Positions 1 to 4,860 of a stretch of 49,500 nucleotides of DNA are shown here, one piece after another (the stretch's first letter is position 1; every line of letters starts with the position of its first letter). The notes beneath the pieces are model-generated. The model was not told the origin of the DNA. It saw only the letters and a program-made list of their open reading frames with translations, and ran no database searches. Origin of the DNA: Candidatus Gottesmanbacteria bacterium RIFCSPHIGHO2_01_FULL_40_15 (GTDB taxonomy: Bacteria; Patescibacteriota; Microgenomatia; 2-02-FULL-39-11); contig MFJF01000032.1 of assembly GCA_001779115.1 (NCBI GenBank), positions 1 to 49,500 of the forward strand, read 5' to 3'. A program made the position numbers and the translations under genes.

Positions 1-3000
1 CTGACCGGTTATTCCTGTTGCTCCTGTAGGACCTGTTTGGCCTGTTGATCCGGTTGATCCGGTTGGTCCTGTTTCTCCTGTTGCACCAGTTGAGCCTGTT
101 GATCCTGTAGGACCAATTTGGCCGGTTGATCCGGTAGCTCCTGTAGAACCGGTTGGTCCTATTTGACCGGTTGATCCGGTAGCTCCTGTAGAACCGGTTG
201 GACCAATTTTTCCTGTTGAACCAGTCGCGCCGGTTGGCCCAGTTTCACCTGTAGACCCTGTAGGTCCAAGAACACCTGTGGCACCTGTAGCTCCTGTTGG
301 TCCGGATTGTCCTGTTGAACCAGTTGATCCAGTTGTTCCTGTAGGACCTGTTTGTCCTGTTGACCCGGTTGATCCAGTTGGTCCTGTTTCACCTGTAGTT
401 CCTGTTGATCCAGTTGATCCGGTTGGCCCTATTTGTCCGGTTGAACCGGTATTTCCTGTAGATCCAGTCGGTCCACCTTGACCTGTTGAACCTGTAGATC
501 CGGTTGGACCTGTTTCACCTGTAGCACCGGTAGGTCCTTCTGCACCTGTTGAACCTGTAGATCCGGTAGGGCCGAATTGTCCTGTAGAACCTGTAGCACC
601 TGTTACACCCGTTGGTCCTTTTTCACCAGTTATTCCAGTTGCTCCGGTTGGGCCTTTTTGTCCAGTAATTCCGGTTGCACCTGTTGGGCCAGTTTGACCG
701 GATGCTCCTGTTGATCCAGTTGACCCAGTTGGTCCTATGTATCCGGTTGTTCCTGTTGAACCTGTACTGCCGGTTGGACCTGATTGACCAGTTGCGCCTG
801 TATTTCCAGTGGAGCCGGTTGGTCCTTTTTCTCCTGTTGTCCCAGTTGATCCAGTTGAACCAGTAGGACCATATTGTCCTGTAAATCCAGTAGATCCCGT
901 AGGACCGGATTCACCAGTTATACCGGTTGATCCTGACGGTCCAATTTCTCCTGTTGATCCTGTAGATCCAGATGTGCCTGTTGGACCAATAAATCCAGTA
1001 GCTCCAGTAGCTCCGGTTGTTCCGGTTGGACCTTCCTGACCAGTTGATCCAGTAGTACCTGTAGCACCTGTTGGACCTGTTTGTCCTGTAGTTCCTGTTG
1101 TACCTGTTACTCCTGTTGGTCCTTGTTGACCGGTTATTCCAGTAGCTCCTGTTGGTCCTCTATTTCCAGTTGCACCTGTAGGACCAGCATCACCAGTAGA
1201 ACCCGTAGCTCCTGTTGGTCCCGTAATTCCGGTTGATCCAGTTGATCCAGTTGGTCCAAATAAACCTGTTGATCCTGTTGCTCCTGTTGGTCCTTTTATT
1301 CCACTACTACCAGTTGATCCAGTAGCTCCTGTAGGACCAGATTGACCAGTAGCTCCTGTGGTACCTGATGGACCTGCAAAACCTGTAGAACCTGTGCTTC
1401 CACTAGATCCAGTAGGACCCATTAGTCCAGTAATTCCAGTAGTACCAGTTGGCCCTGCGGAACCAGTTGAACCAGTATCTCCAGTTGCTCCTGTAGGACC
1501 TACTTCACCAGTAGCTCCGGTTGAACCGGTTGAACCAGTTGGTCCATATTGACCTGTAGTTCCGGTTGTTCCTGTAGCTCCTGTAGGTCCGGTTAATCCT
1601 GTAGATCCGCTTGCTCCTGTTGGGCCTTTATCACCGGTTGCACCTGTCGGGCCATATTGTCCTGTAGCACCTGTGGCACCTGTTGATCCTGTAGGACCGA
1701 AATCACCTGTTATTCCTGTTGATCCAGTCGGACCTATACTTCCCGTGGAACCGGTCGAACCAGATGGTCCGATAGTTCCTGTTGAACCTGTTGCTCCTGT
1801 CGGACCAAGTTCACCTGATGCTCCTGTTGTCCCAGTCGCACCTGTTGGTCCCATAACACCGGTTGAACCTGTTGCACCTGTTGGTCCTTTTTCACCTGTT
1901 GCACCTGTTGGTCCGACAGTACCGGTTGAACCTGTTGATCCTGTTGGTCCTTTTTCACCTGTTGATCCTGTTGGTCCTTTTTCACCTGTTATTCCGGTTG
2001 CTCCGGTTGGTCCTTTTTCACCTGTTGAACCTGTTGATCCGGTGACTCCAGTTGGTCCTTTTTCACCTGTTATCCCTGTTGCTCCAGTTGGTCCTTTTTC
2101 ACCCGTTGCTCCCATCTCACCTGTTGTACCTGTAGCTCCAGTAGAACCAGTTTGTCCTTTTTCACCCGTAACACCCGTTGCTCCAGTTGGTCCTTTTTCA
2201 CCCGTTGCTCCTGTTGGTCCTATTGTTCCTGTTGCGCCTGTAACTCCTGTTGGACCTCTTGTACCGGTAGTACCAGTTGAACCAGTTGCACCTGTTGGAC
2301 CTTCTACTCCTGTAACCCCCGTAACACCTGTTGGACCTTTTTCACCGGTTGCTCCTGTTGGTCCTGCTGTCCCTGTAACACCTGTTGCTCCTGTTGAACC
2401 TGTCGGACCCTGACTTCCAGTTGAACCTGTAGTTCCAGTTGGGCCAGTTTGTCCTGTTGCTCCAATAACACCTGTTGAACCAGTTGCACCTGTTGAACCT
2501 GTTTGACCAATTTCACCGGTACCACCGGTAGCTCCTGAAGGTCCTATGTTTCCAGATGCTCCGGTAACACCAGTGGAACCTGTTGGTCCCTGATTTCCTG
2601 TTGATCCAGTTGAACCAGTCGGACCTGATTGACCACTAGCTCCGGTTCCTCCTTGTGTTCCAGTTGAACCAGTTGCACCTGTAGGACCTTTTAAACCTGT
2701 TGATCCAGTTGAACCAGTTGGACCTTTTAAACCTGTTGATCCAGTTGAACCAGTCATACCAGTTGGTCCTATATTTCCGGTTGATCCGGTTGATCCAGTT
2801 GGTCCTTTTTCTCCTGTAGCTCCTGTTGGTCCAGGTGTACCCGTTGAGCCGGTTGATCCGGTTGATCCAGTTGGTCCTTTTTCTCCTGTAATACCAGTTG
2901 CTCCTGTGGGGCCTTTGTTTCCCGTTGCTCCTGTTACTCCAGGAGGCCCTGTTGTTCCAGTTGCTCCAGTTGAACCTGTCGGTCCTGCTTCACCTGAAGC

Positions 3001-3525
3001 ACCAGTTGGTCCTTGTATTCCCGAAGAGCCTGTTGATCCTGTTGATCCTGTTGGACCTTTATCACCTGTAATTCCAGTCGGGCCTGTTGGTCCAAATTCT
3101 CCAGTTGCACCGGTTGGCCCTGCAGTTCCTGAAGCACCCGTTGAACCTGTTGAACCTGTGGGACCGGTTTCTCCTGAAGCTCCAGTAGGACCGATAGCAC
3201 CACTAGCTCCGGTCGATCCTGTTGACCCGGTAGGTCCGGCTGAACCTGATGCTCCTGTAGGACCTCTTATACCTGTTGCACCTGTAGCACCAGTTGGTCC
3301 TGTTTGACCTGTAGTTCCAGTTGTACCAGTAGGTCCTTGGACTCCAGTTGCTCCGGTTGGTCCGGGATTTCCTGTTGTACCTGTAGATCCCGTAGAACCT
3401 GTCGGACCCTGGATTCCGGTTGCTCCGGTTGGTCCTTCTGATCCGGTTGCACCTGTAGAACCTGTAGCACCTGTTGGTCCAGTTACTCCTGTAGGGCCGG
3501 TTGGTCCTGTCTGTCCAGTTGCTCC
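1..3525 (-). repeat. Coding 9-nt periodic array (Gly-X-Thr collagen-like triplets), about 1175 aa
   Basis: On the + strand every third in-frame codon is NCC (= GGN Gly on the minus strand). The Gly phase is the same at 3523-3525 and at 4-6 and in every line I checked. The Y position is almost always Thr (+ strand tgt/agt/ggt/cgt). Confidence 0.9.
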
Positions 3526-4860
3526 TGTACCACTCCCCGTAGTAGAAGTTCCGCTTACAGAAGATCCTCCTACTGGTGTCGGAGTTACCGAAGCTGCTGC
3601 TGTTGTTGTTTCACAAATAACCAGCTGATTATTGTCATCTAAACAGATTGATTTACCGGTTCCTTCGGTTAGTCCTGTAAAAACAATATTACCCGATGAT
3701 GAAATCCCAGAAGCTGATTCGATAGCGCCTGAAGAATTGACTTTAAATGAATTTCCTGCTCCGACTGTTAAACTGTTTTCTATATCTGCTTCTGAAGTTG
3801 TTAAACCTCCCAAAGCTTCCAGAAGTCCGGAGACTGTTGCCGATCCTCTCATAGCAATATCCAAATTGACTTCAAATATAGCTTTTTCAGCTTCCGCGCT
3901 TAGTACCTGTCCAAGAATAGCTTCTTTTGAAGGTGATCGAGAAGTTAAATTGTTATCAGTTTGGTTTTTCTCATTTAAATAAAAATAATAGCCTCCGATA
4001 CCAGCGGAAATAACAATTAAGAAACATGCTAAACCTACAGTAAGTGCCGCTTTGGAAATTTGAAATAGGGGATAGTAGTTAATATTTTGCAGCGATGTAT
4101 TGTTAAGGCCGGTTAAATTGGAAATTCTATTTCTTAAAAAATTACTTAAGAATGCTCTTGGTAAAGCTAACTTATGGACATAATTATCCGATATGACATA
4201 TTTCTTAAAGGGTTTTTCTTTTAATGGGATTGTAACTTCCGGATTAATCCATTTGAGAAATTGGCGTAAGGTAACAACATATCTTTTTACCGTATTTTGA
4301 GGAATATGGTTATTGAGGGTAAATTCCCTATAATTTTCAATTAAAGTTAAATTTAATTTCTCAGGCAGGAATTTATAGTTATTTTTTTCTTCATACCATC
4401 TAATAAATTTGCTCAAATCAGCAGAGTAATTTCTGATCGAATTTTTGCTTAATCCAAGATTTTTTAGATGTCTGATAAATTTTTGTAAGTATTCATTGAA
4501 AGTAATATCCGATAGTAATTTATCTGGAGTCGAAATATTTGTAGCATCGGGAGTTAATATTTCTGCTTCAGGGGTAGTTGTAGATAGAATATTTATATGG
4601 GGATTTGCCCAATTGAGAAATTGTTTCAACGTAGCCAGATTTCTTCTAATTGAATTATCCGGTTGATTGTTTTCTCTAAGATATTCTTGAAATTTATCTA
4701 AATAGTTTTGGGGAATTTTTTTAGGGTCAAATTCTTCACCTGTGATTACTTCGAACCAGCGGATGAATTTTGCCAGATCAGCAGAGTAGTTTCTTATTGA
4801 ACTTTTGCTAAGCCCTTTGCTCTTTAGATATTCGGCAAATTCTTGGGGCAGGCGAGACAC
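1..4860 (-). CDS. Giant membrane-anchored collagen-like repeat protein, 3'-truncated by the window edge. Architecture: two tandem integrase-type SAM-like/core-binding domains, one TM helix, a ~145-aa linker, then at least 391 Gly-X-Thr triplets.
   Basis: Absent from the ORF track because no stop codon lies in the window. Manual minus-strand translation starts at GTG 4860-4858, with an in-frame TAA two codons upstream. It reads [37 protein letters not shown]...[11 protein letters not shown], then a second copy [37 protein letters not shown]...[12 protein letters not shown] hydrophobic segment [24 protein letters not shown] follows, then ...[30 protein letters not shown]... I re-chunked every 60-nt line from 1 to 3660 into this frame (codons at 1-3, 4-6, ...) and found no in-frame tta/cta/tca, i.e. 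no minus-strand stop. Confidence 0.85.

Follow-up and report, generated by a model that had tools for sequence, protein, structure and literature searches.

A 49,500-nt stretch of contig MFJF01000032.1 (assembly GCA_001779115.1, Candidatus Gottesmanbacteria bacterium RIFCSPHIGHO2_01_FULL_40_15, from groundwater), referred to here as the window, holds at its left end, on the minus strand, the start of a gene that encodes a protein of more than 2,100 residues. Two recombinase-type SAM-like domains, a single transmembrane (TM) helix and a collagen-like array follow one another in this protein, and we consider it probable, at about 0.72, that it is a collagen-like attachment or spacer fibre, anchored in the type II manner and carrying a cytoplasmic SAM-like pair. 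Comparison with its relatives places it, as the branch with a collagen stalk, in a sizeable family of Microgenomates proteins that lacks annotation and has interchangeable fibre ectodomains. An earlier note on this DNA had described a giant collagen-like gene with SAM-like domains, no catalytic domain and a TM helix, and this core reading stands.

We found that the minus strand from 4860 to 1 reads as 1620 codons without a stop, starting with the GTG at 4858-4860; an open frame from this GTG to the window edge had been claimed and is borne out. Two in-frame TAA codons lie directly upstream of the GTG, and the start is considered well placed because the orthologues share its first residue, opening with M/V-S-x-L-P. 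When all six frames were read over 1-3525 the fibre frame alone was stop-free, the other five carrying 14-85 stops, which rules out the Pro/Val-rich plus-strand frames that the earlier note had considered as possibly the expressed ones. The gene had been noticed to be absent from the list of open reading frames (ORFs), and it was missing only because that list omits ORFs running off the window end. Repeats in the array are degenerate at the DNA level (62-86% match), and each of the four Gly codons and of the four Thr codons is in use, those ending in A or T being preferred as elsewhere in the host genome; conservation therefore acts on the protein. The ratio of non-synonymous to synonymous substitution (dN/dS, Nei-Gojobori method) was taken against the orthologue on contig L023, whose protein is 63% identical, and gave 0.26 for SAM-like domain 1, 0.13 for domain 2, 0.15 for the juxtamembrane module that follows the TM helix, 0.18 for the beginning of the collagen array and, taken together, 0.20, values that are approximate with dS near saturation. 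We conclude that the gene is real and that every compared part of it, both SAM-like domains included, is under purifying selection.

The collagen-like array occupies residues 446-1620 (1..3525, minus strand), where the window edge cuts it, and it matched the Pfam family Collagen (PF01391), a profile that had been named beforehand, strongly (E=4.8e-169). Its longest run of Gly-X-Y is exactly 391 triplets (residues 446-1618). About 391 triplets of Gly-X-Thr had been claimed; the count is exact, but the array is not uniform, as Thr stands at Y in 294 of the 391 triplets (75%). Of the X positions, 94 are Ser, 91 Pro and 69 Ala, and GPT and GST each account for 86 (22%). Such GPT/GxT triplets had been taken for a hallmark of BclA, which they are not: they are a general signature of bacterial collagens, in which Thr is the most frequent Y residue (PMC8968730). 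Thr-rich collagen helices depend on hydration networks or on glycosylation (PMC8968730).

Other contigs of the same organism were retrieved through exact sequence matches to the alpha and beta subunits of ATP synthase encoded nearby, and more than 10 independent contigs from different samples were obtained (ENA, JGI, and GenBank GCA_001779275.1 and GCA_001779385.1). Rifle scaffold ANAN16-1_SAMN03842431 scaffold_2129 differs from the window by 1 base in 4860 and its gene runs in frame to 1959 codons. On the near-identical contig L005/L011 the gene is in frame for 1959 codons, and on L010 for 2136, so that the gene does continue past base 1 as had been supposed; the array on L010 comprises 563 uninterrupted Gly-X-Y triplets (1689 residues). 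Five assemblies that were aligned to the window (L004-L008) showed 0-2 single-nucleotide polymorphisms (SNPs) and, apart from these, only in-frame indels of 27, 36, 45, 72 and 108 bp, every indel between assemblies being a multiple of 9 bp. Over 4.8 kb, 10 independent contigs are in agreement, with 0-2 SNPs and in-frame indels of 27-108 bp as the sole differences. In a second look-up, 9 of 10 contigs were stop-free for 1800-2136 codons. The remaining stop is a single TGA in L004/L009 (codon 1706 of L004) in place of a codon that is Gly in L005 and L006, after which the array goes on in frame. Recoding of UGA as Gly was considered for this TGA and rejected, given the nine stop-free assemblies, the Gly read in L005 and L006, and the normal behaviour of the other window ORFs under table 11. 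All 10 retrieved contigs break off within the array, several of them at the onset of exact 45-bp units; from about 5.8 kb into the gene the 45-bp repeats are perfect. Each assembly of this organism from short reads is broken by the array, and estimates of genome completeness should take this as a practical warning.

Stops and frameshifts also occur in the arrays of relatives. The gene on L001 (coverage 4.6) has an in-frame TAA (9809-9811) 98 triplets into the array and then stays in frame for at least 1499 codons; that on L025 has an in-frame TAA (about 2570-2572) after 36 triplets, with 893 stop-free codons following; and that on L024 has a TGA and then a frameshift (1993-2035) about 73 triplets in. 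TAA falls at X positions and TGA at Gly positions. A programmed, position-conserved stop was rejected, since L001, L024 and L025 have their lesions at differing depths (98, about 73 and 36 triplets, respectively). The lesions may reflect inactivation, at the level of strains, of a surface fibre that is costly or targeted by phages, or else assembly errors at low coverage.

Ahead of the array the protein is built from five segments, all on the minus strand. SAM-like, or core-binding (CB) type, domain 1 comprises residues 1-90 (4591..4860, including the start codon; net charge +3) and domain 2 residues 116-206 (4243..4515; net charge +7), both of them four-helix bundles. A predicted cytoplasmic linker (residues 207-267, 4060..4242) leads to the TM helix (about residues 268-295, 3976..4059), which is predicted to run N-in/C-out, and a predicted extracellular juxtamembrane region (residues 296-445, 3526..3975) contains a beta-rich module at about residues 315-420 with its core at 3601-3798.

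The tandem SAM-like pattern that had been recognised by eye was recovered by profile: PF02899 (Phage_int_SAM_1), which had been suggested for it, matched at E=3.9e-18 over two stretches (residues 6-85 and about 120-203), as did PF13495, likewise suggested, and PF13102 matched as well. The two copies are 46% identical to one another. An AlphaFold model, made with 53 homologues, placed four-helix bundles at residues 4-85 and 116-205 with a predicted local distance difference test score (pLDDT) above 90, followed by a long helix at residues 270-306 and a low-confidence beta-rich stretch at residues 340-416. The best Foldseek matches in the PDB were the N-terminal domains of IntI (2a3v; probability 1.0, root-mean-square deviation 2.0 Å over 87 columns), XerA (5hxy) and Cre (1ma7), and the family profile also matched XerA and an integrase N-domain among PDB sequences. 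The catalytic domain PF00589 (R-K-H-R-H/W with a Tyr nucleophile), by contrast, gave no Pfam match at E<=1, in agreement with the earlier claim that it is absent; the TM helix follows the SAM-like domains instead. In each of 16 diverse family members compared, the two SAM-like domains are both basic, with mean net charges of +5.6 and +4.9, against a mean of +2.2 for the N-terminal 95 residues of 37 Xer-type recombinases from the same search. The pattern N-Y-x-x-D...F..W and an Arg (R73/R193) are invariant across the SAM-like domains compared.

The best PDB sequence match to the SAM-like module was chain 14 of 9i5v, the N-terminus of a 401-residue Porphyromonas gingivalis protein deposited as ribosome-associated 'RaiA', only 34 residues of which are modelled on the ribosome (PMC12123416). 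This protein may be another case of a SAM-like domain joined to a non-recombinase function, or a Xer-RaiA fusion.

The window protein has one hydrophobic helix, as had been proposed, which lies at about residues 268-295, and no signal peptide. Across 45 family members the number of Lys and Arg residues flanking the TM helix averages 3.3 before and 2.0 after it, and an N-in orientation is favoured in 28 cases against 8. A Cys pair outside the membrane, together with the lectin, PA14 and collagen domains of the relatives, would be typical of extracytoplasmic proteins. We infer from these features that the SAM-like domains are cytoplasmic and the collagen outside (type II, N-in/C-out).

Residues 296-445 had been passed over as a Ser/Gly-rich linker, but they are more than low complexity and hold a conserved beta-rich module with the pattern L-x-V-G-x3-F-x-V-N-x2-G-A-I-x2-A-x-G-I-x-S-x-G-x-I-x-F-T-G-L...C-L-D-x4-V-x-C and a conserved Cys pair (C406 and C416). 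Units of this type occur nine times in P0014 and also in P0020, P0045, P0068 and P0104. Tail-fibre families of the PHROG database were matched by P0104, by P0038 and by the C-terminus of the giant protein on L019. To judge by these sequences the juxtamembrane module appears to be homologous to the repeat units of giant tail-fibre-like proteins, and the model makes it most likely the candidate nucleus for trimerisation. A profile search with the module returned 12 short fragments only, which are uninformative on architecture.

To define the family, residues 1-445 were searched exhaustively with HMMER against 1.84 billion representatives, which gave 552 matches at E<=1e-3. Members were defined by two N-terminal SAM-like domains (with the invariant N-Y-x-x-D...F..W and Arg) that lead, without a catalytic domain, to a TM helix 20-230 residues farther on and to a large ectodomain of the fibre type. 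The window protein fits this description, its residues 2-437 aligning to P0001, P0004 and P0006 at 34-41% identity. Many of the matches are 1,400-2,650 residues long and align to the tandem SAM-like module over their first 200-220 residues. Among 75 matches of at least 230 residues, SAM-like domains were found in 73, a TM helix 150-520 residues from the N-terminus in 45, and PF00589 in four (none of the 25 largest and four of the 50 mid-size proteins). The ectodomain is of the Collagen type in P0001, P0004, P0006, P0032 and P0131; other relatives carry the Peptidase_S74 intramolecular chaperone, the Peptidase_G2 IMC domain, PA14, GLEYA or H_lectin.

At least 70 protein clusters combine tandem SAM-like domains with a TM helix, are without a catalytic domain and bear interchangeable ectodomains of the trimeric-fibre kind. 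Those family members that are named come from Roizmanbacteria, Gottesmanbacteria or Microgenomates, and their database names are 'site-specific recombinase XerD/XerC', 'site-specific integrase, partial [Candidatus Roizmanbacteria]' or 'phage integrase SAM-like domain-containing protein [Microgenomates group]'. Because it has no catalytic domain the fibre protein cannot be a recombinase, and the recombinase names of relatives that likewise lack this domain, 'XerD' among them, are misannotations. The earlier note did not recognise the architecture. We found no description of it in the literature on collagen-like or SAM-like proteins in the candidate phyla radiation (CPR)/Patescibacteria, or on Gottesmanbacteria; it is nevertheless no one-off, as it recurs throughout this Microgenomates family.

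At three loci, on L019 (a 299-kb Microgenomates contig) and on L020 and L021 (Roizmanbacteria), the module is split into a gene for a SAM-like protein of 167-180 residues and a giant gene that starts at the second half of SAM-like domain 2 and continues with the TM helix and a tail-fibre-like region. The two genes are about 200 nt apart, the gap contains stops, and the break point in domain 2 is the same (L019 8001-8800; L020 and L021 8001-8720). This may be a real split or a degraded fusion; Rfam gave no match in L019 or L020. The giant protein of L019 is complete at 2775 residues; behind its TM helix and tail-fibre-like region come a collagen stalk of 317 triplets and, in about 1000 residues, a tail-fibre-like head. 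No other available relative gives a better idea of how the C-terminus absent here may look. P0014 (3894 residues) has at its N-terminus a MerR-type helix-turn-helix (HTH) before one TM helix and the nine juxtamembrane-type modules. The split loci adjoin comEA/comEC-like competence genes. A 302-residue protein, P0002, on a 1.7-kb Rifle contig (L002), combines a single SAM-like domain with a TM helix and the juxtamembrane module and ends directly behind the Cys motif (ICLDSSN*), with no collagen downstream; it may be a stalk-less form or the product of a chimeric contig.

A short conserved element precedes the fibre gene. It is a 33-nt imperfect palindrome of the form 13-4-13, TGTAACAGATTGATATTTCAAGAAAATACACAA, at 4879..4911 on the minus strand, 19-51 nt upstream of the start codon. 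Further upstream we infer a putative promoter (4933..4963, minus strand) composed of TTGACA at 4958-4963, a spacer of 18-19 nt and a -10-like TTATTAT at 4933-4939; a simple promoter scan did not flag it owing to the long spacer, and the arrangement TTGAC(A/G)-N18-TTATTAT recurs in L023, L024 and L025. The palindrome lies downstream of this promoter-like sequence, that is, in the transcribed leader. It is nearly identical in L023 (1418-1450, minus strand), its first 15 nt are identical and at the same offset in L001 (7548-7580) and L003 (9950-9982), and recognisable versions are present in L024 (TGTAATAGTTTGTTAAATCAATCTATTACA, about 58-88) and L025 (TGTAACAGATTGAGTTATCAAGCTATTACA, about 665-695), so that it has been kept in five lineages, among them orthologues whose proteins share only 33-41% identity with that of the window. 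A search of the window finds the 15-mer a single time, where 0.13 matches would be expected even with two mismatches allowed.

The outer TGTA/TACA and the inner TTGA/TCAA of the palindrome are invariant, and its paired positions are 75.6% complementary, compared with 26-44% when the partner is slid. An RNA structure was rejected, RNAalifold giving -3.3 kcal/mol with no covariation. Because RNA stability is negligible and there are 0 compensatory changes, we take the element to be conserved as sequence; a site bound by a protein in a sequence-specific way explains it better than an RNA helix would, and it is a candidate operator.

The fibre that we favour would work as follows. Two basic four-helix bundles of the recombinase core-binding type would sit in the cytoplasm, a single helix would span the membrane N-in/C-out (bitopic, type II), and the Cys-containing tail-fibre-like module just outside would nucleate trimerisation. 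At least 563 Gly-X-Y triplets would then project the distal end about 0.5 micrometre or more from the cell, where the fibre would attach or space, as a cell-anchored 'tail fibre' contacting host cells or particles. Trimer and triple-helix formation, Thr glycosylation and adhesive function are proposals of this reading. The canonical triple helix rises 0.286 nm per residue. If a continuous triple helix forms, the 1173 collagen residues of the window would measure about 335 nm, so that the more than 300 nm put forward earlier is arithmetically sound, and the 1689 of L010 about 480 nm, while the array of L003, which exceeds 11 kb and has N-gaps and frame changes, would come near 1 micrometre. Such a stalk would exceed the length of the cell producing it. 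As for the cytoplasmic pair, the favoured option is that it would bind nucleic acid or another anionic partner, possibly the leader palindrome. A nucleic-acid-related role is favoured because two unrelated DNA-binding folds, SAM-like and MerR HTH, both sit before the TM helix, at the predicted cytoplasmic end, of fibres that share the extracellular repeat.

Several points weigh against this reading. Pro makes up only 8% of the array residues, so the stability of a triple helix is unproven, and no glycosyltransferase Pfam match was found among the window ORFs scanned. The extension of the contig that the earlier note had proposed lengthened the gene to at least 2136 codons but reached the C-terminus on none of the 10 contigs, so that the sequence covers neither the full length nor the distal domain, which is presumably the functional one; a scan of JGI metagenome contigs with a distal 41-mer common to L009 and L010 gave 0 matches. 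With lesions in L001, L025, L024 and one of the 10 same-organism assemblies, the gene may often be inactivated. The charges flanking the TM helix of the window protein itself (1 before and 2 after) do not discriminate between orientations, and the bias across the family is modest. The juxtamembrane module of the window had 0 PHROG matches and nothing significant in a PDB sequence search, and was modelled at a pLDDT of only 35-74 in a monomer AlphaFold model. Finally, DNA binding by the SAM-like domains is putative, and binding of the palindrome by the gene's own domains is speculation.

A potential explanation of the SAM-like pair that would not need to invoke DNA is that its DNA binding was lost and that it serves as a protein adaptor, a cytoplasmic foot for interaction or anchoring that positions or clusters the fibres or just enforces the N-in topology. 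RodZ, whose HTH binds MreB, offers a precedent, and the occurrence of the module on fibres of many ectodomains, as well as its encoding at some loci by a separate small gene beside the fibre gene, would suit a generic role in anchoring or assembly. The strong positive charge of both domains and the adjoining palindrome suit nucleic acid at least equally, however, and the neighbourhood differs between subfamilies (atp operon or comEA/comEC); we regard the adaptor as possible but doubtful. It is unlikely, though worth stating as a refinement of the fibre reading, that the protein is also a membrane-tethered regulator similar to ToxR/CadC, its SAM-like pair binding the palindrome in its own leader for autoregulation or contact signalling, with co-translational membrane insertion keeping its own locus at the membrane. 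The palindrome stands at the same offset in the window and L023, in L001 and L003, in L024 and in L025 despite the divergence of the proteins and saturated dS; it is unique in the window and combines high dyad complementarity with a lack of RNA covariation, as suits a protein site; and its two inverted 13-bp arms are laid out much like the core sites to which the CB domains of recombinases are directed. Each of the two domains is basic and has the invariant Arg, and in P0014 a MerR HTH takes their position. Yet the element could serve any other regulator, a collagen trimer is mismatched to a dyad site, the split loci L019-L021 are without the motif, and recombinase CB domains bind tightly only along with the catalytic domain. 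A specific form of this proposal, which we think rather improbable, is that a CB domain was exapted in CPR into a membrane-tethered DNA-binding module acting on the palindrome of its own leader, and couples the state of the fibre to transcription or tethers the locus. If true, one-component transmembrane regulators would gain a new class, to which P0014 with its MerR HTH, TM helix and giant fibre is a parallel; through such a regulator, assembly, tension or host contact of a half-micrometre fibre would be relayed to transcription, or the locus tethered to the envelope.

The remaining alternatives deny the fibre gene itself. That the array is collapsed or chimeric, or the gene a pseudogene, might be suspected from the way in which all contigs end in the array, from the perfect 45-bp repeats beginning at about 5.8 kb, from the N-gaps with frame changes in L003 and from the lesions in L001, L024, L025 and L004. 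Ten assemblies from different samples nonetheless agree over the first 5.4 kb, with 0-2 SNPs and indels in multiples of 9 bp; nine of 10 are stop-free, dN/dS is about 0.2, and the N-terminal fusion is kept in distant orthologues, which leaves an artefact or a dead gene very improbable. We give scarcely any credence to a prophage tail-fibre gene, or to a Xer-type recombinase mis-assembled onto a collagen gene. The ectodomain blocks of relatives do match phage tail-fibre families and Peptidase_S74, and the labels XerC/XerD and integrase point the same way, but the position beside the atp operon is conserved, the protein has a TM anchor and no catalytic domain, no phage genes are near, and the same fusion recurs in many lineages and assemblies, so that this reading is already contradicted. 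We therefore retain the membrane-anchored collagen-like fibre as the preferred reading.

The fibre gene lies downstream of atpA-atpG-atpD and is separated from atpD (ATP synthase beta, 5783-7240) by a non-coding spacer of 922 bp (4861..5782; 26% GC, no ORF). Neither tblastn nor six-frame reading found an atpC remnant in this spacer. L001, in comparison, has an 82-residue ATP synthase epsilon consisting of the N-terminal domain only. Long AT-rich spacers are found at the orthologous loci too, that of L001 measuring 1.5 kb (32% GC). The position downstream of the atp operon is common to the window, L001, L003 and L023, and the orthologue on L001 (P0001) is 37% identical to window residues 1-445 by BLASTP and 41% in the alignment. 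Proteins that cluster with the window's ATP synthase beta or its YceG at 90% identity or above bear the name Candidatus Gottesmanbacteria (OGG16367.1, OGG23465.1 and OGG23453.1), which belong to the Microgenomates group of the CPR. L003 is CAYGFH010000002.1, a 250-kb contig of a metagenome-assembled genome labelled 'uncultured Gammaproteobacteria'; it has the atp/fibre synteny of the Gottesmanbacteria type and an orthologue of P0001, and its label is probably wrong. No phage genes were found near the fibre gene, the neighbours being the atp operon and GH130 genes, and Rfam found three tRNAs in the window and nothing else.

The products of two adjacent GH130 genes of the mannoside phosphorylase type (11869-15712) are both extended at the N-terminus by about 300 uncharacterised residues, and the genes are followed at 16003-17871 by a nicotianamine-synthase-like/methyltransferase fusion; to link these genes to glycosylation of the Thr-rich fibre would be pure speculation. 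A further cluster at 20886-29885 comprises a subtilase with dockerin, a cohesin-domain protein, a 945-residue CBM96 protein and another dockerin protein; for a CPR genome, this set looks like a surface assembly of cohesin and dockerin proteins akin to a cellulosome.

A life in attachment to other cells is assumed for the CPR/Patescibacteria, and to our knowledge the structures by which they attach are, pili excepted, largely unknown. The family described here would be one of N-terminally anchored tail-fibre-like or collagen-like filaments that have been hidden by the names XerC, XerD and integrase or lost at contig ends. Vertebrate collagen I has 338 triplets, and with at least 563 the collagen branch would rank among the longest uninterrupted collagen-like helices known. 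The recombinase fold (and the MerR HTH) at the cytoplasmic end of the fibre, together with the conserved palindrome, would offer a testable lead to envelope-to-DNA coupling in minimal cells.

With the tyrosine recombinases (XerC/XerD, IntI, XerA, Cre) the fibre protein shares the N-terminal core-binding four-helix bundle, in sequence and in predicted fold; it differs in having no catalytic domain, and in carrying the CB domain in tandem ahead of a TM helix. In ToxR/CadC and RodZ, as is predicted here, an N-terminal cytoplasmic fold of the DNA-binding type is followed by one TM helix and an extracytoplasmic domain; the ToxR/CadC module binds an operator and that of RodZ a cytoskeletal protein. 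Their folds are a winged HTH and an Xre HTH, respectively, with small periplasmic domains, whereas here we found a CB four-helix bundle, not an OmpR-type winged HTH, and a fibre of more than 1,700 residues. Members of the family resemble phage tail fibres in their collagen-like segments, VGIGTT-type repeats, S74/G2 chaperone domains and lectin tips, but they are cell-encoded, N-terminally membrane-anchored and found at conserved chromosomal positions with no virion genes nearby; for the window gene, the lack of PHROG matches to its module and its context of atp operon and GH130 genes likewise speak against a tail fibre.

The MACITs, or membrane-associated collagens with interrupted triple helices (collagen XIII, XVII, XXIII and XXV), have the topology predicted for the fibre protein, with a cytoplasmic N-terminus, one TM helix and a long collagenous ectodomain, and according to Snellman et al. 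(2000), as cited in PMC8968730, their conserved membrane-proximal sequence nucleates the trimer, which folds from N to C. Their helices, in contrast, are interrupted and stabilised by hydroxyproline, and they have no domain of a DNA-binding fold, so that the likeness is one of analogy only, with homology limited to the Gly-X-Y repeats. The BclA/Bacillus exosporium glycoproteins and the PCL adhesins of Pasteuria are likewise Gly-X-Thr-rich surface filaments (GPT, GST, GAT) with polymorphism in repeat number between strains; their Thr residues bear O-linked glycans, and their fibres serve in attachment (PMC8968730). BclA-type proteins, however, have tens of triplets compared with at least 563 here, a short N-terminal exosporium motif and a C-terminal C1q-like trimerisation domain, whereas the fibre described here has a TM anchor, SAM-like domains predicted to be cytoplasmic and the juxtamembrane module at its N-terminal side. 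A GPT-rich region is present, which as a general trait of bacterial collagens is weak evidence of membership; the exosporium-targeting motif is absent from the N-terminus, where the tandem SAM-like domains and TM helix stand, and the C-terminus is on no contig. The fibre protein is not a recombinase and cannot be grouped with the BclA type. We conclude that as a bacterial collagen-like surface fibre it is known in kind, and that its anchoring and its cytoplasmic module are new.

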